DNA from: a virus
Length of the DNA stretch: 40,507 nt
Strand: one strand, 5' to 3'
Virus genome (UHGV): UHGV-0094371
Part shown: one piece after another, positions 1-40,507 of the stretch
How positions within the stretch are numbered: the first letter of the stretch is position 1
How the letters are laid out: each line of letters begins with the position of its first letter
Program-made: the position numbers and the translations under genes
Notes under the pieces: generated by a model
What the model was told of the DNA's origin: nothing
Database searches by the model: none
The model's input: only the letters and a program-made list of their open reading frames with translations

Positions 1-3000
1 GTTCTGGATCACAAACGGTAAAGCCACGCTGTTACCTGCTGCCGTGGTGACGGCGAAGCGGTCAGCCAGGAAGATAACCTGCGACTGCATGCCTGACGGC
101 GTGTTCCCAACGCCAATCCCCATGCCCGCGGCGTAATACTGACCGTTGCTGGAAACGCCAACCTTGATGTTATACATCGCGCTGAGGTCGCCATTAACGT
201 TGGCTATCGCCTGAGCATTAGTGGTGATGGCTGAGGTATGCCCGTTCACCGTCGCCGTGATGCTGTTTACCTGCGTGGCCATAGCCTGCTGGTAATCGGA
301 GAACGTCTGGTTCAGGCTGTTGATGGATGCCTTGTTGCCGTTAACGTCCGTCTGCAGGCTCAGCAGCGAGCGCGCCGTTGCCTCCCTGTCGTTGACAATC
401 ACCTCATCAATACGGTCCAGATTCGCGCTGTTGCCGGCGACCGATGCAGAAAGGGTTTTACGCGTGGCCACCTGAGCGAGGTTGGCCTGGATTATCGCAA
501 TTGCAGAGTTCTTCACCCCGCCCGTCATGCCGTCCATCGACACAGAAATCTCGTCGATCTTCACTTCGGCCTGAGCCAGCCCGTCAGCGTTCTCCAGGAT
601 GTCTTTCGCCTGCTGCTCGAGTTCGTCGGCATGGTTTTTAATTTCGTCAGCCATGCCAGCAATTTTTTCATTGCTGTCCACCGCGTTCTCGATCAGGTCT
701 TTGAACGTCTCAGACCCTTTGATGTCTTCAAGGATCACATCTGTGATGTCAGAAACGTCGATACTGGCCTGCCCACGAACCCAGCCGGTATAACCTGACT
801 CGTTACCGCTGCGGTCAACCAGCTGCGCGCGGTACCAGAAAATCTGCCCCGCTTTAAGGCCCATCTGCTGATATTTACGCTGTGGGTATGGCACATCAGC
901 CAGCAACATCGCATCGTCCTCAGTACCGGTCAGGCTGTACTGAATTTCCGTCTTCAGTGTATCGTCCGTATTGGCCGGGAACCCCCAGTTCAGCTCGATA
1001 CCGAACACCACGTTTTCAGACGCGATGAAACCCACCGGCTTCGGCGGATTCCCGTCCTTGCCCGTCAGTGTTTTCTCTTCTGAATATCCCCATCCGGACG
1101 AAATTTCAGCGGCATTGATGGCACGCACGCGAACCAGGTAGCGTCCCGCATAAATACCCGGAACATCGAACGATGTGGTGGAGCTGCGCGGCACATTGAC
1201 CCAGTTCCCGTCATTGCGGCGCCATTGTGCTTCATAGGCGATAGCGTTCTGCGCCTGGTACCAGCTCACGCGCATTGTTTCGACGCTGATATTTTGCTGA
1301 ACCACGGAAAACGAGCTGATCACGATATTCGCAGGCGGCGACTGGTTGCCCGGCGGGATCACGCTCACCGGCCGTTGGTCAATGATGGCTCCGGTATCGA
1401 TACGGGCATATTTATCCGGGTCGTGCCATGCGCCGGTAATCGAGAAAGTGCCATCATTGTTATCGGAAACGCTGACAACTCGATACTGCTGCGCGTAGAG
1501 CTCGTCAGATTCAACCACCCAAACAGCTTCGGCCTGTGGCGTCTCACTGTATGCCGTGGTGACTGTGACTGATTCCCCGTTCACGGCCTGAATGGTCCTG
1601 CTCTGCGACGCTCCGGAGGGAAGGTTGAGAATAAGGCGATCACCTGGTGCTGCATCAGCTACGCGGTCAAGTTTGATAACGCGACCGTTAACGGCGCTGA
1701 TGCGGCCGCCCATAACCTTTCCGGAAAGCAGCTCGTCTGCCACGGCGATGATGTAGCCAGGCTGCGGAATGTTTCCGTCCAGCCCGACATCAAACGAAAC
1801 AACGCGATCCTTGTTGTTGGTGAGAATGCCCCAGCGCCCCTTTCGGTTCGCTTCTGACTGCCTGGTGCAGCCGATGGCTGTCATTTCCAGCTGATTGAAG
1901 CCGTATCGCGCTACCAGCGCCTGCTCAAATACCGGCTCCATCGCGTCGGCATAAGCGTTACCCGGGTCTGACCATGAAACCAGCGCTGTGGTGTAGCGGG
2001 TTTTCGTGGTGCTGCTTGAATAGGTGAAGCGACCGCCAACAACGTTGGCGCGCGTGTAGCTGTAATCAACATCTCGGGGCATATCGGCCAGAGCAACGAT
2101 CTGATCGCCTCCCCAGTACGTCATGCCACGGAATATGGCCGCAAAATCACGCAGGACTGTATAAGCGTCGTTTCGGTCCTGGATGTACACGTTGCAGGTA
2201 TAACGTGGTTCGGTACCGTTGCCCCCTTTGCCGTCTGGTACCATCTGATCACAATACTGGGCAACCTGATAAAGCGTCCATTTATCAATATTCGCAGCGG
2301 TCAAACGGTGCCCGAGGCCGAACCGGTCAGAAACAACCAGATCGTAAAAAATCCACGCAGGGTTATCCGTCCATGCCCACTTAAACGCACCGGTCCATGT
2401 ACCGCTATAAGTGCGGGTTTCAGGGTCGTAGGTATCTGGAACGCGGATAACACGGCCGCGGGGCTCGCAGGAGATCTGCGGGATAGAGCCGTTAAACTGA
2501 CTTGAATCGAATTCGATGTAGAGTAGCGCGGTGTTCGGGTAGCGCAGTTTGGCGTCAATCACCTCGGTGAAGCTCTGCAGCATCATCGTGTCGCCGATCT
2601 TCGCGCTGTTCGCATCAGCGGTGATTTTACGCAGACGAAGCGTCCAGGTGCTGCCGGCCTGCGGAAGATCAATACGGTGGCTGCGCTCATAACCGGATGT
2701 GGTCTTACCGGTGACGCTGGTATTCAGCACCGTCTGCCAGGTGCCGCCGTCGGTCTGCAGGTCAATCGCATATTTAATCGAATACCCGACCAGATCGCTG
2801 TCGTCTTCCTGCTGGAAAAGCGATGGCCACTTCAGGCGCAGACGAACAGCAGAAAGCTGGGTATTGGTAAAAGTGCGAGTCCAGGCTGTGGCGCTTGATA
2901 CTTCGGTACCCACGCTGATTTCGTTTTCGGTGCCGGGTATGCCCTGAATGTATTTCTGTGCCTGGGTGCCGGAGCGAAACTCCCAGGTGACGCCGCTGAA

Positions 3001-3204
3001 GTTCTGGGAGCCGTCAGCATTCTCAATAGCGGTACCATCAAGATAAATGTCTTTGCCGGTTAACTGACCTGAGAACTCACCTTCCCCCAGCGCGATTAAT
3101 AATTTTGCCTTCGCTATAGACTGGAGATCATCCGGCTGTTCGGTAGGCGTGCGGGATTTAGATCCTCCACCTTTACAGCCCTTAATTGCGGTTGCGTTTA
3201 CCAT
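1..3204 (-). CDS. J: tail tip / host-specificity protein J (central tail fibre); ORF runs off the window start, so the C-terminal end is missing
   Basis: ATG at 3204 on minus strand; the frame (plus codons 1-3, 4-6 ...) was open in every segment spot-checked (1-60, 601-660, 1201-1260, 1981-2040). N-terminal translation MVNATAIKGCKGGGSKSRTP...NFSGVTWEFRSGTQAQ resembles the lambda J N-terminus as recalled. Position after I in lambda tail order. Confidence 0.8.
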   Translation of the reverse strand, partial: MVNATAIKGCKGGGSKSRTPTEQPDDLQSIAKAKLLIALGEGEFSGQLTGKDIYLDGTAIENADGSQNFSGVTWEFRSGTQAQKYIQGIPGTENEISVGTEVSSATAWTRTFTNTQLSAVRLRLKWPSLFQQEDDSDLVGYSIKYAIDLQTDGGTWQTVLNTSVTGKTTSGYERSHRIDLPQAGSTWTLRLRKITADANSAKIGDTMMLQSFTEVIDAKLRYPNTALLYIEFDSSQFNGSIPQISCEPRGRVIRVPDTYDPETRTYSGTWTGAFKWAWTDNPAWIFYDLVVSDRFGLGHRLTAANIDKWTLYQVAQYCDQMVPDGKGGNGTEPRYTCNVYIQDRNDAYTVLRDFAAIFRGMTYWGGDQIVALADMPRDVDYSYTRANVVGGRFTYSSSTTKTRYTTALVSWSDPGNAYADAMEPVFEQALVARYGFNQLEMTAIGCTRQSEANRKGRWGILTNNKDRVVSFDVGLDGNIPQPGYIIAVADELLSGKVMGGRISAVNGRVIKLDRVADAAPGDRLILNLPSGASQSRTIQAVNGESVTVTTAYSETPQAEAVWVVESDELYAQQYRVVSVSDNNDGTFSITGAWHDPDKYARIDTGAIIDQRPVSVIPPGNQSPPANIVISSFSVVQQNISVETMRVSWYQAQNAIAYEAQWRRNDGNWVNVPRSSTTSFDVPGIYAGRYLVRVRAINAAEISSGWGYSEEKTLTGKDGNPPKPVGFIASENVVFGIELNWGFPANTDDTLKTEIQYSLTGTEDDAMLLADVPYPQRKYQQMGLKAGQIFWYRAQLVDRSGNESGYTGWVRGQASIDVSDITDVILEDIKGSETFKDLIENAVDSNEKIAGMADEIKNHADELEQQAKDILENADGLAQAEVKIDEISVSMDGMTGGVKNSAIAIIQANLAQVATRKTLSASVAGNSANLDRIDEVIVNDREATARSLLSLQTDVNGNKASINSLNQTFSDYQQAMATQVNSITATVNGHTSAITTNAQAIANVNGDLSAMYNIKVGVSSNGQYYAAGMGIGVGNTPSGMQSQVIFLADRFAVTTAAGNSVALPFVIQN

Positions 3205-15854: not shown

Positions 15855-16057
15855 ACGTAAAACCCTGCTGGCCCCCGGCGTCGTGATGTGGTGCCAACCT
15901 GAGATTCAAGGTCAGCAATATATTTTTTGAGATCGCTGACTGAAGTGGCTGTAAATTCCACTCTTCGACCGTCTTTCTGTACCGTCGCCACGCGCTTTCC
16001 CATCATCAGGTCATGTAACGCAGCGCGCGCGGCATCCAGTTCAGTCTGTGTTGCCAT
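15851..16057 (-). CDS. W: head-tail joining protein W
   Basis: 68 aa; [46 protein letters not shown] is near-identical to lambda W as recalled. Confidence 0.9.
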
Positions 16058-17979
16058 TATTCATCTCCAGATAATGCCCGCGCGTAATCCGCCAGGGTCT
16101 TGTTATTGTTACGGCTGCCTTCTTCCTCCAGCAGGCTGGCCAGAAGTGAATCAAGATTTAGCTGCCAGCGGGATATGCTTATACGCAGCGCCGCCAGTGC
16201 ATAAACAAAGCAATCGAGCGCCTCATTTCGTCGTTTTTTGCTGTCCCAGACGATCTTTTTCTTTCCGTCTACCCATTTTTCCACCTGCTCTTCAGCTGTT
16301 AGTTGTTGGGCCTCTGTTAGATCGTAGATTTCTGGGTTATTCGGGAAATGAACCGCTCCCGCCAGCGGCTCGTCTCTTTGCGCCACCAGCGTGAAACGGT
16401 TATAAATCTGCTCTTTTGCGGTGTCTGTTCCTACCTCTGTGAGGTAAACACCATTCTTGTTACGCTTGCGTGGCATGTTCGCCACTGGCTTTCCATAAAC
16501 CGACGCCCCCTTTATAGGGATCACACGAAACAGACCGTGTTTTTTTGAGCGGTTGTAGACGATGGTGGGATCAATGCCGCCAATATCCCAGCAAGTGCGG
16601 GATATAACCATTTCGAGACCGTTCTGGCGCTTATACGTCCTGTTGATCGCTTCATCAACTCGAGCGAGAGTCGACTCATCATCATGACGACCCATAATGA
16701 TAATTTTGTCGATAAGCCAGCTTTCCTCTCCCGGCCCCCATCCCCAAACACGCATTTCGTAACGGTCAAGCTGGGAGTCAATACCCGCTGTCAGATATGC
16801 CACTCGCTCCGGCACAGACGCTTCAAAGTGCTCTTTTCGTTCCGCTAAAACTTCAGCATCGGGTCGTTCACCTATTTTCGGTTCCCACGTTTCTCCCAGG
16901 GTCGTGTTAACGAAAGTTTTTCGCTTACCCGTATCACCTTTTGTTTTTATCCAGTCCTTGACGATCTGCACCCAGGTTGTGAACGGGCTATATGCGGTCC
17001 AGATGTGGAATGTAACGCTGTCAGGAGGTTCAATTTCGGTACCGGATGAAGAAAACCAGTTAAGGCCGTCTCGTGTCCAGATACCTGTTTCATCACAAAT
17101 ATACCTGGCCTCCAGAAATTCCAGCTCCTGTTGTTTAATCACACAGGCATTGTGTTCACAGAGGTAGTAAACGCTGGCAGGTTCTCCCGGAGACCATTTG
17201 AAGCCAAATGGTGTCTCTTTATCACCGAATTTCAGATACTGCTCTTCCCCACAGTGTGGGCATGGAACATGGAACCGAAGAAAATGTTCAGACTCCTTAG
17301 CAGCTCTTTCTATCTGGCACGTACCTTTGACTTTCGGTGTAGATCCGCGAATGGATTTCGGCCATACAGAACCCTCAATACGCTTATCACCCAGAAAGGT
17401 GGGAGAACCTTCTTTCTCGATGTCATCATCGAAAGCGGCGAGCTCGTCGTAGCCAGCCACATCAACTGATTTTTCACGGTAGTTTTTTGCAGCCTTACCG
17501 CCCAGGCACCAGAAACCACGACCATTCGAGAAACGCTTCATGCTCAGCGTATTGTCCCGGTGTTTTTTACCGTACCAGGGAGCAAGCGCCAGCAACGTCG
17601 GAATATCACGAATGGTCGGTTCTACATGAGACTTCATGAAGTTTTCAGCATCACCGTCGGTTGGTAACCATATTAGGGAGTTACGCTGTTTATGTTGGAT
17701 GAAATATGCGTAAACGCCGAGCAACATTTTTGAGTAGCCGACACGAGCCGATTTAACGACATTCACCTCGCGAATATAGTCATTACCCATCGCATTCATA
17801 ATTGCACGCTGAAATGGCAGTGTTTCCCAGCGCCCTTCCTGGTAGGCAGACTCTTTCGGGAGATAATAATTCTCATCTGCCCATTCAACTGCTGTTTGCG
17901 GTTGCGGCCGGTACAGCGAACGTAACCCCGCCCGCGCAGAGTGCTGCAGCCCCTTAACCTGACTGTTCGATATATTCAC
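16057..17979 (-). CDS. A: terminase large subunit A
   Basis: 640 aa; synteny and length match lambda gpA. Confidence 0.95.
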
Positions 17980-18499
17980 TCAGCAACCCCGGTATCATTT
18001 CATCCAGCGCAGCTGCCTTGTTCATGGCCTTAATGATGTCCTTCTTGAGGAAATCAATATGTCGGTTCTCCAGCTCCGGGAAGCGCCGCTGAACCGACAG
18101 AGGTATTCCATCGAGAATGCTGGCGATTTCTCCGGCTACCCGCGACAGCACGAACGTGCAGAATGCGGTCTCCACCACTTCAGCGGACTCTTTTGCATTT
18201 TTTAATTCCTGAGCGTCAGCCTGAGCTCGCGTAAGTCGGTGTCGCTCATATTCAATCGTGCCAGGTTGAAGATCGGACTCAGAAGCGATACGGAGATCTT
18301 CAACTTCCTTCCGCAACTTTTCATTTTCTATAGCTGCATCGCGCGCACTGTACCATTCGATTGCAGCAGCAGATTCAAAGAGAACCTCATTACCTTTGCC
18401 ACCACCGCGGACAACCGGCATACCTTGCTCCTGCCAGTTCTGAATCGTTCGGACGCTTACCCCGAAAATTTCGGATAAGCGTTTTTTGTTAACCTCCAT
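17954..18499 (-). CDS. Nu1: terminase small subunit Nu1
   Basis: 181 aa; MEVNKK...IRTIQNWQEQGMPV.RGGGKGNEVL matches lambda Nu1 almost residue for residue as recalled. Confidence 0.9.
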   Translation of the reverse strand: MEVNKKRLSEIFGVSVRTIQNWQEQGMPVVRGGGKGNEVLFESAAAIEWYSARDAAIENEKLRKEVEDLRIASESDLQPGTIEYERHRLTRAQADAQELKNAKESAEVVETAFCTFVLSRVAGEIASILDGIPLSVQRRFPELENRHIDFLKKDIIKAMNKAAALDEMIPGLLSEYIEQSG

Positions 18500-18599
18500 G
18501 GCTTACTCCTGGCAAAAAACAGAGAAAGGAAACAATCAACGGTAAACTTCCGTTTTCCTTGCTCAGCATTTCCTTTCTGGAGAGAGGACGTTTTTAACA

Positions 18600-18700
18600 A
18601 AAACAATGAGTAAACAAGAAGAAGAACGGAAATGGCATAAACCAGAAAATTTTCATAAATAGCGAGAATCTGCGCGGACGCCGCCCCGTAACAAGGCGGA
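18600..18700 (-). other. cos site (cosN/cosB), lambda-like; predicted 12-nt cohesive end GGGCGGCGTCCG (minus strand, plus coordinates 18675-18686)
   Basis: reverse complement of 18600-18700 aligns by eye to the lambda left end (lambda GGGCGGCGACCTCGCGGGTTTTCGCTATTTATGAAAATTTTCC...); sits about 187 bp upstream of the Nu1 ATG, as in lambda. Confidence 0.7.
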
Positions 18701-18787
18701 TCGCCGGAAAGGACCCGCAAATGATAATGATTATCATTTGCTGGAATGCGACTTGATTCGCACCCATTTGGACGTCTAAACGTCCAT

Positions 18788-19255
18788 TCATCGCGACAGC
18801 GCTGACCATATCGTGCCACCTGGCCGAAGACTCTTCTTCAGTTCCTCGGACACAACATCTGAGATCGCTTTTACCATTTCAGGGGATAGCTTCACGCCGG
18901 TCTTAATTTCGGGACAGATGCCAACATTGATGGCATAGCCTTTTCGTGGGTCGTTCTCTATCCGGCCAAACTGAATATTTACAGAGCCACCAATATAACC
19001 ACCAGCAGGAACACCAAAGCGCGTATTCACCAGGTGCTTAATGGCGAACTCCTGCCCTTCAGCGGTCAGGAAGGTGTAATAATTTTCCTTTTGATACTCC
19101 GTCGCGGTATGGCGTGTTTCAGCGAATCCCAGCTCTAGAAGCTCAGCAGCACCAGATTTGGCTGGCAGATCACCAGACTGAAGCGCGCCACGGAAAAACA
19201 GCGCATAAAGCACTTCATTAGCAGCGCCAGATAGCGTAATGATTTTGTTACTCAT
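18788..19255 (-). CDS. hypothetical protein (155 aa from the internal ATG at 19255)
   Basis: ORF with AAGGA RBS 8 nt upstream of the 19255 ATG; no family recognised. Confidence 0.5.
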   Translation of the reverse strand: MSNKIITLSGAANEVLYALFFRGALQSGDLPAKSGAAELLELGFAETRHTATEYQKENYYTFLTAEGQEFAIKHLVNTRFGVPAGGYIGGSVNIQFGRIENDPRKGYAINVGICPEIKTGVKLSPEMVKAISDVVSEELKKSLRPGGTIWSALSR

Positions 19256-19274
19256 GGAATATTTCCTTTTAGGC

Positions 19275-19341
19275 GTGAGCCTGTCGCACGGCAATGCCGC
19301 CCGAGAGGTAAACGCAACCTAACGGCATCACCCAGGCTCAC
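19275..19341 (-). promoter_or_regulatory. structured 5' leader (9-bp outer stem gtgagcctg/caggctcac around a nested 6-bp stem) directly upstream of the RBS of the 18788-19255 gene
   Basis: inverted repeats read directly; no T-run follows, so it is not an intrinsic terminator. Confidence 0.35.
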
Positions 19342-19640
19342 TACTGAAAGACTCTCTTTGATGTGCGCGTGCGATGCGCGTAGAAGACTGATTTATCAAC
19401 CTGTCTTTATATCAGGATTCATTACCTGACTATTTGTGGGTAAAGTTCGTAGTGCGCTGATCGTGCAAAATGATTTTAGTTGGGAACAGTTCGCAACTCT
19501 GTCCCATAAAAATCAGCATATTCCCATCTATCCCATATCCAGCGCATTGACCATCGGGATACTGAAGGGAGATTCCATCATCTCTTAGAAAGATCACCAT
19601 CTCTTTTGTTTCAATTTGCATATAGCTACCTGGAGGATTT

Positions 19641-20255
19641 ATGAATGCAAGGATTTTCATGGACTATTACCATGAGATTGATTTTCCATCTTTATTCGCG
19701 AGAGCAGTGGAAAGCGATGACGATGTGGGTACTACATTGCGCATTCACCTACTTTGTGAGCGCATGGTCGAAGCATGGATATGCGCATGCTGTGACTGCC
19801 AAGATCTCTTTGGAAGAGATAAAAACAAACTTTTAATCGAATGTAATACTAAAATATCCATGGCGGGAAACCTGGGAATCCCCCCGGAACTTATGAAATC
19901 ACTTAAAACCATCAACTCAATGCGTAATGACCTTGCACACAATCCATCAATACAAAGCATTGCTGATTCAAGGATCCAGAGCCTGAAGGATACTCTGACT
20001 GAATACTTTAAACAGCATCCAACGGAACCCAGCATGGAAGAATCAAAACTGGGTATTTTTAACGCCGAGAATCAATTAACCGAAGAAGTTTCCTTAGATA
20101 GTGACAGTTCAAAAAACAGACTTAAGTTAATCTTGCTGTTCAGCAAGTTAATGCAGGCGTTAATGCAATTAGTTGCAGCTAATCATAATGGGCGCTGGGA
20201 TAACCAATTTAGCCAATTCGTTTACCATGTGACCATGAACGCAACAAAGAGATAA
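19641..20255 (+). CDS. hypothetical protein with an R-x4-H (HEPN-like) motif; candidate lysogeny-expressed moron (alternative start 19659)
   Basis: 204 aa ORF antisense to the late operon in the lambda bor position; locally AT-rich by eye; motif SMRNDLAHN; GGAGG RBS. Confidence 0.5.
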   Translation: MNARIFMDYYHEIDFPSLFARAVESDDDVGTTLRIHLLCERMVEAWICACCDCQDLFGRDKNKLLIECNTKISMAGNLGIPPELMKSLKTINSMRNDLAHNPSIQSIADSRIQSLKDTLTEYFKQHPTEPSMEESKLGIFNAENQLTEEVSLDSDSSKNRLKLILLFSKLMQALMQLVAANHNGRWDNQFSQFVYHVTMNATKR

Positions 20256-20323
20256 ATCCAAGCCCGTTTTGTACGGACTGTTGCATTATCACAGGCACTC
20301 AGTGAATGCCTGCTGTAATGCCG

Positions 20324-20527
20324 CTAGTCGTCGAGTTGCAACACACCGTGATCCAGTGATTCTGAATAGGCGATAAGTCCGGTATAACCGGGGATAATCT
20401 CACCATTATCAGCTTCAAATTCAGGAATTGTGCCGGTGGTGATGGTGTATTGAGGCTGGCCATCTTCCTTCGCGAAGGCTGCCAGGTCTTCAATCTGCTT
20501 AGCTGTAAGAACTACTGTCATGCTCAT
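20324..20527 (-). CDS. hypothetical small acidic protein (67 aa)
   Basis: ORF with GAGGA RBS, downstream of the Rz terminator on the late strand. Confidence 0.4.
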   Translation of the reverse strand: MSMTVVLTAKQIEDLAAFAKEDGQPQYTITTGTIPEFEADNGEIIPGYTGLIAYSESLDHGVLQLDD

Positions 20528-20539
20528 TCCTCAGTTGTT

Positions 20540-20562
20540 AAAAAGCCCCGCGAGTGCGAGGC
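20540..20562 (-). terminator. intrinsic terminator downstream of Rz/Rz1 (7-bp GC stem with one G-U pair, then T5 on the minus strand)
   Basis: minus-strand gcctcgcactcgcggggcttttt. Confidence 0.5.
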
Positions 20563-20734
20563 GATTTGATTGAATTCTCGGCTCTTATCTCAGCGCAGCC
20601 CCTTACTGCGTGCCGGTTGCTCGGTGATGAGCATCAGCGATGAGACATTAAAGCCGACCGAAGGCCAGCGGCGTTCCTCATGTTGCCGACAGAGCCATAT
20701 CGACAAGAGGACGAAAACTAGCAGCATGAATCGC

Positions 20735-21256
20735 CTATTGGTTATTCGACAGTCGCACTGATTCGTAAATCCGCTCACACGTCATTCCTGCCCGGTAGCT
20801 TTCGTCAGATCGTCCAGCATAATATCGAGCTGCTTCTGCAAGGCTTCCGAGCATGTCGGCAAGCATTGCTGCGTTGGCTCCGGCTGTTTTGCTTCTGACG
20901 GAAGTGGCGAGATCTGCGGTGTGCTTTGCGGCGTCCATGTGGGTAGCGAGTTTTGTTGCTTCGGCGCGCAGCTGCTTAACAGTGGTAGCCAGGCCAGCAG
21001 AAGTAACGGCAGCGCTCGCTGCTTGAGCTTGAGCATCTTTAACGGCCTCATCCCGGGCGATTGTTCGCCCTTGTTCAATCATACGAGCTGCGGTCTGTGC
21101 ATTCGCTTCCTGTGAAGATTCCGCGCTATCCCGGTCAGCCCACTTTATTTTCCAGCTGCGGTTCGTCCACTCACTGCCAGCGAGAAACGAACTTACCAAC
21201 GCAACAATCACAATGATGCAGATGCCACCCGGCTTCACTGGTCTATCCCCCAGCAC
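20735..21256 (-). CDS. Rz: i-spanin Rz
   Basis: 173 aa; N-terminal TMD (ICIIVIVALVSSFLAG) then Ala/Gln-rich coiled coil; directly after the endolysin. Confidence 0.75.
   Translation of the reverse strand: MLGDRPVKPGGICIIVIVALVSSFLAGSEWTNRSWKIKWADRDSAESSQEANAQTAARMIEQGRTIARDEAVKDAQAQAASAAVTSAGLATTVKQLRAEATKLATHMDAAKHTADLATSVRSKTAGANAAMLADMLGSLAEAARYYAGRSDESYRAGMTCERIYESVRLSNNQ
20782..21036 (-). CDS. Rz1: o-spanin Rz1 (lipoprotein) embedded in Rz in another frame
   Basis: lipobox LLSSC after a hydrophobic signal (MLKLKQRALPLLLLAWLPLLSSC), proline-rich mature part; fully inside Rz. Confidence 0.6.
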   Translation of the reverse strand: MLKLKQRALPLLLLAWLPLLSSCAPKQQNSLPTWTPQSTPQISPLPSEAKQPEPTQQCLPTCSEALQKQLDIMLDDLTKATGQE

Positions 21257-21774
21257 GTCAGTGCGCTTTCCTGGTCCCGTCTCTCAACCTGACCATAGCA
21301 GCCATTCTTCTGGCCTTTGGTTAGACGGCAATCACGGCCACCGTCTTTAATCCACCAGCGGATTGCCTCGCATGCACCGATGCGGTCACCTGCGTTGATG
21401 CGCTTATAGAAGGTCGATGGGAAGCATTTACCGGGGCCGATGTTATACGGGCAGAAGGATGCGATACCCACCTTCTGTGGCTCTGTCAGAGGCACTTTGA
21501 TATTGCGATCAACCCAGGCTAATGCCTTATCGCGTTCAATAGCGTTAACCTTCCGGCATTGTTCCTCAGTGGCCGTCATGCCCTTAACAACACGCCTGCC
21601 ATCGATAACGGTCACGCCGTGACATAAAGACCAGACCCCACCCGGATCAACAACGGCCAACAGCGCATTGCCTTCTTTCTCGCTGATGAATTGGTCGAAA
21701 ATGAGTGGAGCAGATGCCCCTGACGCGATTAGCGCCAGCACTGCTGCGCTGAGCTTTGCTTTGTTCGACATCAT
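21235..21774 (-). CDS. R: SAR endolysin (GH24 phage lysozyme), phage 21 R-like
   Basis: 179 aa; weakly hydrophobic Gly/Ala/Ser-rich N-terminus ([19 protein letters not shown]) typical of a SAR domain; E-x8-D catalytic spacing; ATGA overlap with the holin. Confidence 0.8.
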
Positions 21775-21986
21775 TCACCCCGCGCAGCTTTGCGGCGATC
21801 CGCTTTGATTTGGAAGTACAGACTCGTTAACCACGTCAGCAAACCAAACATGAGGCTACCGAGCACACCAATGGCCGCCCATTGAGATGGGGAGACTTTA
21901 TCTAGGAGCTGGAGCAACCAGTATCCGGCCCCCCCTCCCGATGCGCCGTATGCAATACCCGTCGTGATTTTTTCCATTCGATACAT
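21771..21986 (-). CDS. S: class II holin / pinholin (S21-like)
   Basis: 71 aa, two TMDs; ITTGIAYG...[14 protein letters not shown]...RRKAARGE matches phage 21 S as recalled. Confidence 0.85.
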
Positions 21987-22056: not shown

Positions 22057-23109
22057 TTATTCCCATGCCAGCTGCCTTACCTCACTTACCGTCTGGTTGA
22101 AACGTTCCTCTTCCAGTTCTACGCCGATAGCCTGGCGGCCCAGTTCAATGGCTGCTTTAACAGTTGATCCCGAGCCCATAAAGAAATCAGCTACCACATC
22201 GCCGGGCCTGCTGCTGGCGTTGATGATTTGCCGCAACATATCAGCGGGCTTTTCGCACGGGTGTTTGCCTGGATAGAACTGGACGGGTTTATGTGTCCAG
22301 ACGTCTGTATAGGGCACGGCTACTGTCACAGAGAAATGCCGCCGAAGAGATTTGTACTCTTCCAGCAGATCAAGGTATTTCCGGTTCAACGAATGCCATG
22401 TGGCCACCAGCTGGTGATGCGGTGCTTTGAGTTCAGAGGCGCGGTGCTTCTCAATGGCGATCTGAGTGAACAATTCCTGCAGCTTTTCGTAATCCTGCTC
22501 GTTTGGTAGTTGCCACTGACTGGTACCGAACCAGTGAGACGCCATATTTTTCTTTCCGGTAGCGTCAGCTATTTGCCTGGACGTGACCCCCAGTTCGGCT
22601 CGTGCATCACGAAAGTAGGTGATTAACGGAGCCATGACGTGCTGTTTGACCTCGTTGCTTTTCTCAGCAAATCCGTCGCTTTTCGGCTTATATGGCCCCT
22701 GATAATGCTCAGCGAAAAGGATGCGTTCCGTCGCGGGGAAGTAAGAGCGCAGGCTTTCTTTATTACAACCGTTCCAACGCCCTGATGGCTTCGCCCAGAT
22801 AATGTGGTTCATGACGTTGAAGCGTTCACGCATCATGATCTCAATATCGGATGCAAGTCGGTGACCTGAAAACAAATACAGGCTGCCGGCAGGCTTAAGC
22901 ACTCGCCAGAACTGGGCAAGACACATATCAAGCCAGCGAAGATAGTCGGCGTCACCGTTCCACTGATTATCCCAGCCGTTCGGCTTCACCTTAAAATAAG
23001 GCGGATCCGTAACAATAAGGTCGATGGTGTTATCTGGGAGGGTTGCGAGGTATTGCAGGCAGTCAGCGTTGATAAGCTCAACACTGTTTATATTTACAGT
23101 ATTTTTCAT
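22057..23109 (-). CDS. orphan DNA methyltransferase (beta-class N6-adenine/N4-cytosine, PF01555-like)
   Basis: 350 aa; motif IV DPPY near the N-terminus (IVTDPPYF) and motif I FxGxG near the C-terminus (DFFMGSGST); no adjacent restriction gene. Confidence 0.85.
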   Translation of the reverse strand: MKNTVNINSVELINADCLQYLATLPDNTIDLIVTDPPYFKVKPNGWDNQWNGDADYLRWLDMCLAQFWRVLKPAGSLYLFSGHRLASDIEIMMRERFNVMNHIIWAKPSGRWNGCNKESLRSYFPATERILFAEHYQGPYKPKSDGFAEKSNEVKQHVMAPLITYFRDARAELGVTSRQIADATGKKNMASHWFGTSQWQLPNEQDYEKLQELFTQIAIEKHRASELKAPHHQLVATWHSLNRKYLDLLEEYKSLRRHFSVTVAVPYTDVWTHKPVQFYPGKHPCEKPADMLRQIINASSRPGDVVADFFMGSGSTVKAAIELGRQAIGVELEEERFNQTVSEVRQLAWE

Positions 23110-29348: not shown

Positions 29349-29601
29349 GGTTCACCTCCTGTTCCTGTGGTTTAAACCCATTCTGGTTTTGGCTAGATTG
29401 AAAACGTGCCGGATAAAGAATCTGCATTTCGCTGATTTCACCCTTAAAAAAATTGGCTAAACGTTCTGCAAGCTCGATAGATGGAATCTGCTCCAGCCTC
29501 TCAATACGACTCAACGTCGCTGGATTGACTTGAACACCCGCAGCAACATGCTGCAAAGTGAAACCATGCGCCTTACGCACATTTCGTAATGGTGATTGCA
29601 T
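29341..29601 (-). CDS. cro: Cro-like HTH (XRE family) repressor
   Basis: 86 aa; HTH (FTLQHVAAGVQVNPATLSRIE); divergent from cI across a 97-bp operator region. Confidence 0.75.
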   Translation of the reverse strand: MQSPLRNVRKAHGFTLQHVAAGVQVNPATLSRIERLEQIPSIELAERLANFFKGEISEMQILYPARFQSSQNQNGFKPQEQEVNRG

Positions 29602-29698
29602 ATATCCTCCAAATATTGCGCGTTATGCATGTTATTTCACGCAAGTATTTTGCGCAAGTTGATTTGCTTATCACGCAATAAAGAAATGTAATAAACGC
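29602..29698. promoter_or_regulatory. cI-cro divergent promoter/operator region with two inverted-repeat sites (TTGCGYG-N15-CRCGCAA) and an 8-bp perfect palindrome TTGCGCAA
   Basis: half-sites at 29616-22 / 29638-44 and 29650-57 / 29672-78. Confidence 0.55.
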
Positions 29699-30391
29699 AT
29701 GAACATAGGAAAACGAGTCAGACAACTTCGCCAAGCGAAGAACATGAAAATCGCCGATCTCGCTGAAGCAATAGGAGTAGATGCGGCGAACATCTCGCGC
29801 TTAGAAACGGGTAAGCAGAAACAATTTACCGAACAAACACTGAGTAATATTGCCAAGAGCTTAGGTGTTGATATTGCTGATCTCTTTACCTCTGCCCTCA
29901 AAAGTAATACTGTATATAAAAACAGTAATGATGAGGATGTTGCGCAGGTGAAGGATGTGTTCCGTATTGAAATGTTGGATATCAGTGCCAGTGCGGGAAA
30001 TGGCCTTATCCAGGGCGGTGATGTCATTGATGTGATTCATGCCATCGAATACAGAACTGATAATGCTGTATCAATGTTCGGCGGACGACCAGCCAATCAC
30101 ATCAAAGTTATCAACGTTCGTGGGGACAGTATGTGTCCAACCATTGAGCCAGGAGATCTCATCTTCGTTGATGTCAGCATCAATCAGTTTGATGGTGATG
30201 GTATATATGTCTTTGGTTTTGATGACAAAATATACGTTAAAAGACTTCAAATGATTCCTGACAAACTGCTGGTGATTTCTGATAACCAGATTTACCGTGA
30301 ATGGGGAATTACTAGCGAAAACGAACACCGATTCATGGTCTTTGGAAAGGTCTTAATCAGTCAGTCGCAAACCCTTAAGAGACATAATTAA
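29699..30391 (+). CDS. cI: CI-type prophage repressor (N-terminal HTH plus C-terminal S24 LexA-like peptidase)
   Basis: 230 aa; HTH IADLAEAIGVDAANISRLE; S24 motifs RGDSMCPTIEPGDL and YVKRL. Confidence 0.9.
   Translation: MNIGKRVRQLRQAKNMKIADLAEAIGVDAANISRLETGKQKQFTEQTLSNIAKSLGVDIADLFTSALKSNTVYKNSNDEDVAQVKDVFRIEMLDISASAGNGLIQGGDVIDVIHAIEYRTDNAVSMFGGRPANHIKVINVRGDSMCPTIEPGDLIFVDVSINQFDGDGIYVFGFDDKIYVKRLQMIPDKLLVISDNQIYREWGITSENEHRFMVFGKVLISQSQTLKRHN
29908..29927. promoter_or_regulatory. near-consensus LexA (SOS) box TACTGTATATAAAAACAGTA inside the cI coding sequence
   Basis: CTGT-N8-ACAG with flanking TA/TA; 2 mismatches to TACTGTATATATATACAGTA, both in the AT spacer. Confidence 0.5.
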
Positions 30392-30410
30392 CTTCAATAT
30401 CCCATCCATC

Positions 30411-30433
30411 GGCCACCGAAAGGTGGCTTTTTA
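30411..30433 (+). terminator. intrinsic terminator after cI (GCCACC-GAAA-GGTGGC then T5)
   Basis: direct reading, 20 nt after the cI stop. Confidence 0.65.
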
Positions 30434-30683
30434 TCACCCATAATTTTGCACATCTCGCAAAATATTACTTGCGTATATCGCATTTTAATTTTATCTTTTG
30501 TTCCAGACCAACTACAGGATTACAACAAAATCTAGTTGCAACACGGTGCATGGTGCATGTGTCGTAAGCGGTCAGTAATTGTCAAAAACGAACAGTCAGG
30601 ACGACCACGAAGTAGCCGCCGGTGGCGTATGAATGACCGGATGATTCGCTGACAGAAAACTTAGGTTGGGGGTAGAGGTTTAC

Positions 30684-31049
30684 ATGAATCATTTATTCAC
30701 ATGCTCATTTTGCGGAGCAACCGAACTGGGAGCGATAAAGATCGTCGCAAAAGGTGGTAAGGACGAACCTGCCATCTGTTCGGAATGCGTAGTCACATGT
30801 GTAGAAAAAATGATCCTGACTAAAAAATCAGAGGCTGAAAAACCAACCTCTGATAACGAAATAATATCAGTCGATAAAAAACTATTTAAAGAGCTTCTTC
30901 AGCTTGTCCTCAACCATCCTGATTTCGGAAGTAAGCTGGCTGCTGTTGACATTGATAGTAGCTCCACATCGACAAGTGAAACTTTTGTTCGACTTGAGCC
31001 AAGCGATTTTCTTCTTCGTCTTAGTGCCGCACTTAGGGCATGCGGGTAA
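30684..31049 (+). CDS. stand-alone ClpX-type C4 zinc-finger (ZBD-like) protein
   Basis: 121 aa from the ATG at 30684 (GAGG RBS 6 nt upstream); CSFCG-x20-CSEC resembles the ClpX N-terminal zinc-binding domain as recalled. Confidence 0.55.
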   Translation: MNHLFTCSFCGATELGAIKIVAKGGKDEPAICSECVVTCVEKMILTKKSEAEKPTSDNEIISVDKKLFKELLQLVLNHPDFGSKLAAVDIDSSSTSTSETFVRLEPSDFLLRLSAALRACG

Positions 31050-31079
31050 CGTAATTTCCTGGTTATCAAAAGCGCCCAT
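30882..31079 (-). CDS. hypothetical zinc-ribbon protein (65 aa), antisense to the 3' end of the ClpX-ZBD ORF
   Basis: CPKCG...CRCG zinc ribbon; AGAGGG RBS 7 nt upstream of the 31079 ATG; one of the two overlapping ORFs may be spurious. Confidence 0.35.
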   Translation of the reverse strand: MGAFDNQEITLPACPKCGTKTKKKIAWLKSNKSFTCRCGATINVNSSQLTSEIRMVEDKLKKLFK

Positions 31080-31227
31080 AAACATCCCTCTTGGTTGTGT
31101 GAGAACACCAAGATACCACCGCGCCTGATGTGGTTAAAAGCAGGCTAAAGCAATAACAAGTAACTCCCTGTTCTGGCGGCCCGGTGTTTTCCCGTGTATT
31201 TCCGGTAACCGCCAGCCTTTTTCAGGG

Positions 31228-38783: not shown

Positions 38784-38957
38784 TCATGCTGCTTTGCGAC
38801 GACGAAGCTTACCCTGCTGCTCTTTACCAGAGACAGTAGCGTGAGTGAACGCATTAGGAGCAGCCTTCATCAGAACTTCAACAGCAGCACCCATACCTGC
38901 GAATGCTTTCATTGTGTCGAACTTAACCTGTGGCTTGGTTGCTTTTTGATCTTTCAT
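38784..38957 (-). CDS. hypothetical small basic protein (57 aa; not in the ORF track)
   Basis: hand translation MKDQKATKPQVKFDTMKAFAGMGAAVEVLMKAAPNAFTHATVSGKEQQGKLRRRKAA; GGGAG RBS 6 nt upstream. Confidence 0.35.
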   Translation of the reverse strand: MKDQKATKPQVKFDTMKAFAGMGAAVEVLMKAAPNAFTHATVSGKEQQGKLRRRKAA

Positions 38958-39153
38958 AGAAAACTCCCGAGACAGTAAAGGCGTCTCTAACCCTCTCTTT
39001 AAAGCTAGCTTGTTTCGCTAACTTATGCCAATCGATCATGTCGATTGGTGACATCGTTTCTTAGTAGTTTAAGCACAAAACGACTGCCATAGATGTACCT
39101 TTAAGGTAATCTGGACGGGTATCCTACAATTTGTAGACCCTTCTCGTCTATAC

Positions 39154-39690
39154 CTACTGAGCAAATTTAAGAAAGATATCCTGCAGCTCATCAATGACTG
39201 CAGACATCACATAACCGCACTGTTCCATGCGGAAACCAAAAGACTCGTAATACTGCACCAGTTCTGGTACTGGCTCTACAATGTGGACAACTTTACATTC
39301 AACAGCTTTACAAAATATAAAAGCACTCATAAGAGTGAGTAAAACCATGCGCCCTTTCAATGGGTGAGATTCATCTTCTCTAGAAAACCTTTCGATCATA
39401 TGGATACGAAAGATGTTTTCTTCAACCCCATAAACACAAATTGCTGCTCCTGATGGTATTCCCTGAACCCGACCTTGCTGAACAAGTTTTATGCAGAACT
39501 CATACTTTTCTCTGGAGTTGCCATAGGTGCTTAACGCATAGTCCCATTCAAGCTCACCATAGCCACCACACAGAATCTTGTAATCATCATCACTGAGCGG
39601 ACCAACAGCAAGAGGTAAGCCGACATGATCAATAATCAACTGGATATTGTTACGTACAGATTGACCTATCTCGTCTAGGGTAAGCATCAT
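39154..39690 (-). CDS. putative GNAT-family acetyltransferase
   Basis: 178 aa; C-terminal YYESFGF motif typical of GNAT; TATAAT-like -10 upstream; AT-rich surroundings. Confidence 0.4.
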   Translation of the reverse strand: MMLTLDEIGQSVRNNIQLIIDHVGLPLAVGPLSDDDYKILCGGYGELEWDYALSTYGNSREKYEFCIKLVQQGRVQGIPSGAAICVYGVEENIFRIHMIERFSREDESHPLKGRMVLLTLMSAFIFCKAVECKVVHIVEPVPELVQYYESFGFRMEQCGYVMSAVIDELQDIFLKFAQ

Positions 39691-40231
39691 AGACTCTCAA
39701 GCGGAACACTAAAAATCTCATTATATCTCATTCTGATGCCCGGCATGGATTACACCTTGAAATGAAAACACCGGGTTCCCAATAGGCTCCCACAAAGTGT
39801 ATAACTACTTGTTTTTCAAAAACGGTACATCCTATCGAGCATTGGTGCAACGCTAAACCGACCACTCCAGTGAACGTCAGTTTTTTCAGGCATTGCGCTG
39901 GTTTGGTTGATTTTTTGCATTTCAGAATTACCGTGCATTTTCAAATGTAGAGATTATTTTATCGATATATCATGGGGTTATGTTATTCAGCATCACTGTT
40001 CAGGAGGCTCAATAGCGGGGTACTATACCATAACAACAGGAAGCGCCTGTCTCATTGCAAAAGAAAATTGAGATCCTCTCAAGGCATGAAGCTCTCACGA
40101 AGTGATGGAAATAATCTTATTAGCCGTTAACTTTATTAAGGCCAATGATAAACAATCCAGGTTCGACGATAAATAAAAAATCACACATTAAACTCTGGTG
40201 ATATATCTCCCTGCTAATAGCATTGATAGAG

Positions 40232-40264
40232 AAAAAAGAACCCAATAAATATTGGGTCCTTTTA
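40232..40264. terminator. bidirectional hairpin terminator (ACCCAAT-AAAT-ATTGGGT flanked by A6 and T4)
   Basis: direct reading; about 40 nt downstream of the partial minus-strand ORF. Confidence 0.5.
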
Positions 40265-40300
40265 TATAATGCCTTCCATACTATCGAAGAACTTCACATA

Positions 40301-40507
40301 TTATTTCTCCGATTTAACCCCGAACAAATCATAAATTAATTTAGAAGTGTCTGTAAGTATTTTAATCTCTTCCTTTGAGGTTGGGTCAAACGACTTCGCG
40401 AAGCTAATTAATTGTGGTGCAGCATCTCGCATTTTGCTTAAAATATCAGGATCGAGCGTTCCTTCATTCACCAGATGTGACATCTTATCCAGATAGCCAT
40501 CAAAATT
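40301..40507 (-). CDS. hypothetical protein, partial (frame stays open to the window end)
   Basis: no in-frame stop between 40483 and 40507. Confidence 0.35.
   Translation of the reverse strand, partial: NFDGYLDKMSHLVNEGTLDPDILSKMRDAAPQLISFAKSFDPTSKEEIKILTDTSKLIYDLFGVKSEK

Follow-up and report, generated by a model that had tools for sequence, protein, structure and literature searches.

The locus at 19256-20323 of the viral genome UHGV-0094371 (40,507 nt, analysed in full and referred to below as the window) is, as far as its sequence tells, an already known one: the defence and counter-defence gene pair TaiEcA/AtiEcA of phage phi80, carried here by a lambdoid prophage other than phi80. The 204-aa product of tai is identical in 203 of 204 positions to phi80 orf63 (PHI80_63; BLASTP E-value 6e-160), for which anti-phage defence was shown experimentally (PMC11364771); the initial annotation, made from the letters alone, had proposed a defence moron, and in this it was right. 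It had overlooked the divergent small partner gene ati (19430-19621, minus strand), a functional part of the system, whose product matches phi80 orf64 (PHI80_64) in 75 of 76 residues, or in 63 of 63 if counted from M14. All the properties of a TaiEcA-type Tai/Ati locus that could be checked were found: orthology, an adjacent divergent ati gene and a moron location ahead of the packaging module, antisense to Q-dependent late genes. The locus itself is no discovery; the useful remainder of the analysis is a bridge between the Tai paper (2024) and the HepS paper (2026).

He et al. (Nat Commun 2024) named orf63 TaiEcA and orf64 AtiEcA and described tai and ati as a ‘noncontiguous operon’ (PMC11364771). 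In their experiments, a phi80 lysogen blocked HK106, HK544 and HK578 in a tai-dependent manner. In infections of cells with TaiEcA phage DNA replication was unaffected, capsid production and lysis were normal, and electron microscopy detected tailless capsids only. [quoted passage not shown] Protection by Tai was observed only at low MOI; lysogens and Tai-overexpressing cells grew normally; an attempt to pull down J with Tai failed. TaiEcA was constitutively expressed in the lysogen, its level dropping upon Q expression. The J protein of phi80 itself is sensitive, hence the need for orf64; on deletion of ati the phage titre collapsed, and survivors carried IS insertions in tai. Interaction of TaiSalB with AtiSalB was positive in a two-hybrid assay. 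In the authors' interpretation Tai inhibits tail assembly directly and without abortive infection (PMC11364771), an account repeated in a 2026 review. Defence, the tailless phenotype, J escape mutants, counter-defence by Ati and constitutive expression are therefore all established for a phi80 protein 99.5% identical to the one in the window. The published Tai phenotype is loss of tails, not classical abortive infection.

Location and layout of the tai-ati cassette

The tai ORF (19641-20255, plus strand) starts with ATG and has its own Shine-Dalgarno sequence, GGAGG at 19632-19636, 4 nt before the start codon. On one side of it are the lysis genes, holin (21771-21986), lysozyme (21235-21774) and an Rz-like gene (20735-21256); on the other side are a variant of cos/cosQ (CGGACGCCGCCCCGTAACAAGG...), at ~18677-18745, and the genes of the small (17954-18499) and large (16057-17979) terminase. 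The neighbouring late genes are all located on the minus strand; transcription of tai therefore runs antisense to that of the late operon. Orientation, ribosome-binding site and location with respect to lysis genes and cos were correctly read in the initial annotation, and so was the local AT-richness: GC content is 42.7% in 19256-20323 and 41.6% in the 961-nt block common with phi80 (19363-20323), versus 51.3% in the whole window; of all windows of that size, only 2.3% have so low a value. Two more AT-rich islets, at 29400-31100 and 38900-40500, have GC as low as the tai-ati cassette; they may carry other accessory or immunity-region cargo.

At the DNA level the 1068 nt of 19256-20323 are 97.5% identical to phi80. 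Identity is concentrated in the two-gene cassette at 19363-20323, where pairwise alignment revealed two visible substitutions; the left flank is ~80% identical to phi80 and the right flank is unrelated. The late-strand gene on the left (18788-19256, minus strand, with its ATG at 19256) resembles phi80 gp66 and N15 gp59 in its N-terminus and differs from phi80 in its C-terminus. On the right, a 67-aa late-strand ORF (20324-20527, minus strand, phrog_9518) is present in place of the rha gene of phi80. Both genes are outside the Tai/Ati system. Within the coding sequences only one visible difference from phi80 remains, at 19647, where phi80 has A and the window G. Residue 3 of Tai is thereby an alanine instead of the threonine of phi80. 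The position falls in the stretch over which a 76-aa Ati frame would overlap tai, and with that start alone would residue 5 of Ati differ as well (A here, V in phi80). The two loci are also alike in the head-to-head arrangement of the genes, in the location of the pair, with the lysis genes on one side and cos on the other, and, as far as the resident J is visible, apparently in its C-terminal type.

Over the 1068 nt the closest match, at 99.9% identity, is a prophage in the probiotic E. coli strain Nissle 1917, in which both proteins carry the RefSeq label ‘hypothetical protein’. The window is not the Nissle 1917 prophage itself: the J genes differ, and the source is therefore another related prophage. 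Among 5426 complete E. coli genomes the cassette region was detected in 137 (~2.5%), Nissle 1917 included; in 80 of these 137 the coverage was at least 80%.

The phi80 annotation starts ati 39 nt further upstream, at 19660, which gives a 76-aa product and would make ati overlap tai by 20 nt. Methionine 14 is invariant, and this start is chosen by most gene callers; in the AlphaFold2 (AF2) model Ati is a small protein of five beta-strands with residues 1-16 disordered. Most likely, then, Ati starts at M14 and has 63 aa. With this start the two ATG codons face each other across a 19-nt spacer (19622-19640) that holds both ribosome-binding sites back to back.

The same layout was found in five further cassettes whose Tai proteins are 37-73% identical to the one studied here. 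All five keep a start-to-start spacer of 18-21 nt, a head-to-head ati-like gene of 63-69 aa (Ati identity 40-63%) and a tai gene antisense to late or tail genes, while occupying other positions in their phages, inside the tail module. The complement of the ati Shine-Dalgarno sequence is located within the spacer in all cassettes compared; an equivalent of the tai Shine-Dalgarno sequence (AGGAG or AAGGA) is present in four diverged cassettes. An ati gene was attached in all Tai relatives examined, over the range of 37-100% identity, and two more distant members of the Tai family, P0033 and P0097, were solo genes. Distant members of the Tai/HepS family lacking ati were seen at L015 2501-3085, in a metagenome contig, and at L016 2501-3073. 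One of these two belongs to an unrelated phage, where it is antisense between lysis genes and HNH/terminase genes and so in the same ‘bor position’; the other has a chromosomal context, with genes for a LysR regulator and an AAA_15/21 ATPase beside it.

A search for sigma-70 consensus promoters that could serve tai was negative, both for 19200-20600 and, in four cassettes, for the 260 nt preceding the gene; an Rfam scan of 18400-21000 with E ≤ 1 returned no family. Structure comparison of the Ati model gave no structural match. The idea of Ati as a sequence mimic of J was rejected, as its local alignment score to phi80 J was no better than those of shuffled sequences.

Comparison of Tai with the HEPN nuclease HepS

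RNDLAH, the R-x4-H motif to which the initial annotation had drawn attention as HEPN-like, occupies residues 95-100 of Tai (codons at 19923-19940, plus strand). Taken alone it says little: R-x4-H arises in 25% of shuffled versions of Tai, R-x4-6-H in 58% and RNxxxH in 1.9%. It is conservation in the family alignment that makes the motif meaningful. Among 99 aligned family members with a mean column identity of 19%, R95 is kept in 97, N96 in 98 and H100 in 98; E40 (97 of 99), H36 (94) and K71 (94) are conserved to a similar degree. The RNxxxH pattern is present in 114 of the 121 Tai-family proteins retrieved, the seven exceptions being four fragments, two full-length proteins with a degenerate motif and P0120, a long weak match.

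The AF2 model of Tai, computed with 19 homologues (pLDDT 86.5, pTM 0.83), predicts a soluble, all-helical HEPN domain followed by a disordered C-terminal tail (residues 189-204). The refuting result named in the initial annotation, a structure prediction lacking a HEPN-like four-helix core, was thus not obtained, and the HEPN reading is supported. The only confident Foldseek matches were four chains of HepS, with probability 1.00 and TM scores of 0.51-0.60. Profile searches led to the same protein: a profile of the close family matched HepS with E-value 7e-4, and the profile of 99 sequences, built from an exhaustive phmmer search with 103 representatives, matched HepS residues 24-145 with E-value 4.5e-17, the next matches being HEPN domains of Csm6. 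Profile alignments put R95 and H100 of Tai opposite R100 and H105 of HepS. In the transitive test, where the HepS stretch of residues 24-145 served as the query, many of the proteins retrieved with TaiEcA were matched, at identities up to 38%. Fold, profile and motif support the assignment of Tai to the HEPN proteins of the HepS family; by the profile evidence Tai and HepS belong to one family, and in structural alignments their identity is ~14-16%.

In sequence searches of the PDB only profiles reached HepS; a single-sequence search with Tai gave nothing useful. A tblastn search with a HepS fragment against the phage collection gave no match. Scans of four local proteins with Pfam and NCBIfam were negative, and PHROGs matches for the local proteins were to families of unknown function only. 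The 2023 release of PADLOC, which has no Tai model, produced only weak matches to CARF-HEPN proteins (E-value 0.004), and Pfam Abi_2 was matched in 6 of the 99 family members with E-values of at least 0.003. Tai is a single-domain protein in which only the HEPN part is matched, weakly, by the CARF-HEPN (Csm6/Csx1) and Abi_2/AbiD-F models; it does not fit either class.

HepS (STM14_3211 of Salmonella prophage Gifsy-1) was described by Sargen et al. [quoted passage not shown] Constitutive expression yields an inactive tetramer. Its ligand is a 32-residue peptide of nascent J around F924, which contacts the N- and C-terminal tails of HepS by beta-sheet augmentation, and the H105A mutation abolishes defence. 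According to the modelling, J bound in this way would be kept from trimerising, and the authors themselves speak of ‘physical disruption of tail assembly’; protection limited to low MOI they interpret as abortive infection (PMC13043305).

Several differences between the two systems have to be kept in view. J-triggered tRNA cleavage and opening of the tetramer are shown for HepS, whereas for Tai they would follow by analogy; tailless particles, on the contrary, are shown for Tai and unreported for HepS. Gifsy-1 tolerates its own HepS through a silent J variant and has no inhibitor, while the prophage in the window combines a J apparently of the sensitive type with Ati. With ati attached, tai is not ‘solo’ in the sense applied to HepS. 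Since HepS has no inhibitor partner and Tai has Ati, regulation differs between them.

Two other prophage systems resemble the pair, as far as their accounts in these papers go. The Tha system of S. aureus prophages (Rostol et al. 2024) is described as a HEPN RNase set off by a phage tail protein, with a cognate anti-immunity function in a noncontiguous operon (PMC11364771, PMC13043305); according to the HepS authors' description, it differs from HepS in being a non-specific RNase with a different tail protein as the trigger (PMC13043305). Tab and anti-Tab of Pseudomonas prophages are alike in blocking tail assembly and in having a counter-defence in the lytic cycle, by the description given in PMC11364771.

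The Tai paper mentions neither HEPN nor motifs or domains (PMC11364771), the HepS paper does not cite Tai (PMC13043305), and two 2026 reviews treat Tai and HepS as unrelated mechanisms. A literature search of incomplete coverage returned no paper linking the two; the Tai-HepS link may be unpublished.

Tail block, possible RNA cleavage and the probable role of Ati

We consider it highly probable that the locus works as a Tai/Ati cassette in which a constitutive Tai of the HepS family blocks tails through J and Ati, made from the late transcript, neutralises it. The tai gene, transcribed against the late operon, would be expressed constitutively in the lysogen, and Tai would recognise newly made J of a siphophage replicating in this cell. 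By homology with HepS, J monomers would be captured before trimerisation; no tails would be assembled, tailless non-infectious heads would be released and the bacterial population would be protected. Binding of J probably also switches on the R95/H100 site to cut tRNA, if the analogy with HepS holds; for the claim that capture of J by Tai activates RNA cleavage we see an even chance or slightly better. The ati gene lies on the Q-dependent late transcript, and Ati would therefore be made only in the lytic cycle. There it would bind and neutralise Tai, sparing the prophage's own tails; the same late transcript would run antisense to tai. Neutralisation of Tai by Ati is backed by genetics in the case of EcA and by the two-hybrid assay in that of SalB (PMC11364771).

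A gene for Ati would be needed because the resident J appears to be of the sensitive type. The J gene of the resident prophage occupies 1-3204 (minus strand) as an open frame cut by the edge of the window, with 1068 aa visible. The visible C-terminal stretch (...SQVIFLADRFAVTTAAGNSVALPFVIQN) matches the J type of phi80, HK106 and HK544, on which TaiEcA acts, with one substitution (E to G) in the last 60 visible residues. The window ends J 4-5 residues before the equivalent of lambda F924, and the rest of J lies outside. In its visible part J thus appears to be of the Tai-sensitive type, which fits the need for Ati.

Whether the nuclease step belongs to the Tai mechanism is where the evidence divides. 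Against it stand the normal DNA replication, capsids and lysis observed with TaiEcA (PMC11364771), given that a strong shut-off of translation would be expected to cut capsids too. In addition, with only ~14-16% identity between Tai and HepS, the activity may not transfer. An alternative that takes these data at face value makes Tai a purely stoichiometric inhibitor of tail assembly, whose binding would only stop J from folding or forming trimers; the HEPN fold would be a scaffold, and R-x4-H would have no catalytic part in defence. This alternative is supported by the finding that infected cells lyse and phage DNA replicates as usual while the capsids lack tails (PMC11364771); it agrees with the reading of He et al., and of the 2026 review after them, of a direct block of the structural pathway; and the modelling of HepS also predicts a block of J trimerisation (PMC13043305). 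It is, however, hard to see why a mere scaffold would keep R95, N96 and H100 in 97-98 of 99 members at 19% mean identity. The H105A mutation of the homologue HepS abolishes defence (PMC13043305), and protection at low MOI only, as seen with Tai, is the very phenotype that the HepS authors call abortive infection. We regard the purely stoichiometric inhibitor as unlikely, though a serious candidate.

The combined proposal that Tai and HepS form one family, that TaiEcA is a nuclease switched by J and that AtiEcA is the first small-protein inhibitor of a HepS-type nuclease has, in our estimate, equal chances of being right and wrong. Under a joint nuclease reading of Tai and HepS, the ‘non-abortive’ inhibition of tails could be what is seen of an abortive-type HEPN defence, or one branch of it; here too we judge the odds to be balanced. 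As relatives, Tai and HepS show two solutions to self-immunity within one family, a silent J variant in Gifsy-1 and an Ati inhibitor in the prophage analysed here; Ati could serve as a tool for switching off HepS-type nucleases.

A HEPN toxin with a small protein antitoxin could also be an addiction module that stabilises the prophage and defends against phages as a side effect. Against this, the lysogen makes Tai constitutively, and Ati, encoded on the late transcript, should appear in the lytic cycle only; lysogens and Tai-overexpressing cells grow normally (PMC11364771), and Tai is therefore non-toxic without Ati in uninfected cells; the defect caused by deletion of ati is in phage titre and not in host viability (PMC11364771). 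An addiction module is accordingly a very improbable explanation. A regulator of host or phage gene expression similar to MtlR/YggD is disfavoured still more strongly, and we give it hardly any weight.

The position of tai and its antisense orientation are those of lambda bor, and could suggest a Bor-like or other fitness factor of lysogenic conversion, such as a serum resistance or surface protein. Lambda Bor is a lipoprotein, whereas Tai has an acidic, non-hydrophobic N-terminus with neither signal peptide nor lipobox, its first cysteine is residue 39, Pfam gives no Bor match and the AF2 model predicts a soluble HEPN domain built of helices only. Sequence and fold rule the Bor-like reading out, leaving it a negligible probability, in agreement with the initial annotation, which had already denied homology with Bor.

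Elements beside the cassette

The right junction of the cassette is formed by a 40-nt block at 20283-20322, 28 nt after the tai stop codon, that contains a hairpin (CAGGCA...TGCCTG). The block is 97.5-100% identical in phages of Klebsiella, Elizabethkingia and Pectobacterium; in the Klebsiella and Pectobacterium (ZF40) records it falls between genes, directly adjoining one on the late strand, in the region bounded by the lysis and terminase genes. The block could mark a junction of modules, serve recombination or else be an element of an RNA 3′ end. Further upstream with respect to late transcription, a terminator scan detected a hairpin resembling an intrinsic terminator after Rz (20545-20562, minus strand), at a place equivalent to that of a terminator annotated in phi80. 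A Q-modified polymerase would need to read through this hairpin to reach ati.

Just downstream of ati and upstream of the gp66-like gene there is a conserved structured leader (19257-19400, minus strand) with a long stem (GUGAGCCUG...CAGGCUCAC). Phage phi80 has a second copy of it, upstream of rha, and copies with ~80% identity are present in mEp213, mEp043 and other lambdoid phages. Two base pairs show compensatory changes in three sequences, with a folding z-score of only -1.9; Rfam has no match for 19257-19400.

A strong Fur-box-like sequence, GCAAATGATAATGATTATCATTTGC, is located at 18717-18741, directly beside cosQ. It agrees with the consensus GATAATGATAATCATTATC in 17 of 19 positions, where no such match is expected by chance, and phi80 carries the same element; no consensus promoter was found next to it. 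The element probably explains why several sources label Ati/orf64 a ‘Fur-regulated protein’.

The late region has a further accessory gene on the late strand: a DNA methyltransferase of 350 aa is encoded at 22057-23109 (minus strand), with holin on one side and the Q region on the other; its equivalent in the related Nissle prophage is annotated as a DNA methyltransferase.
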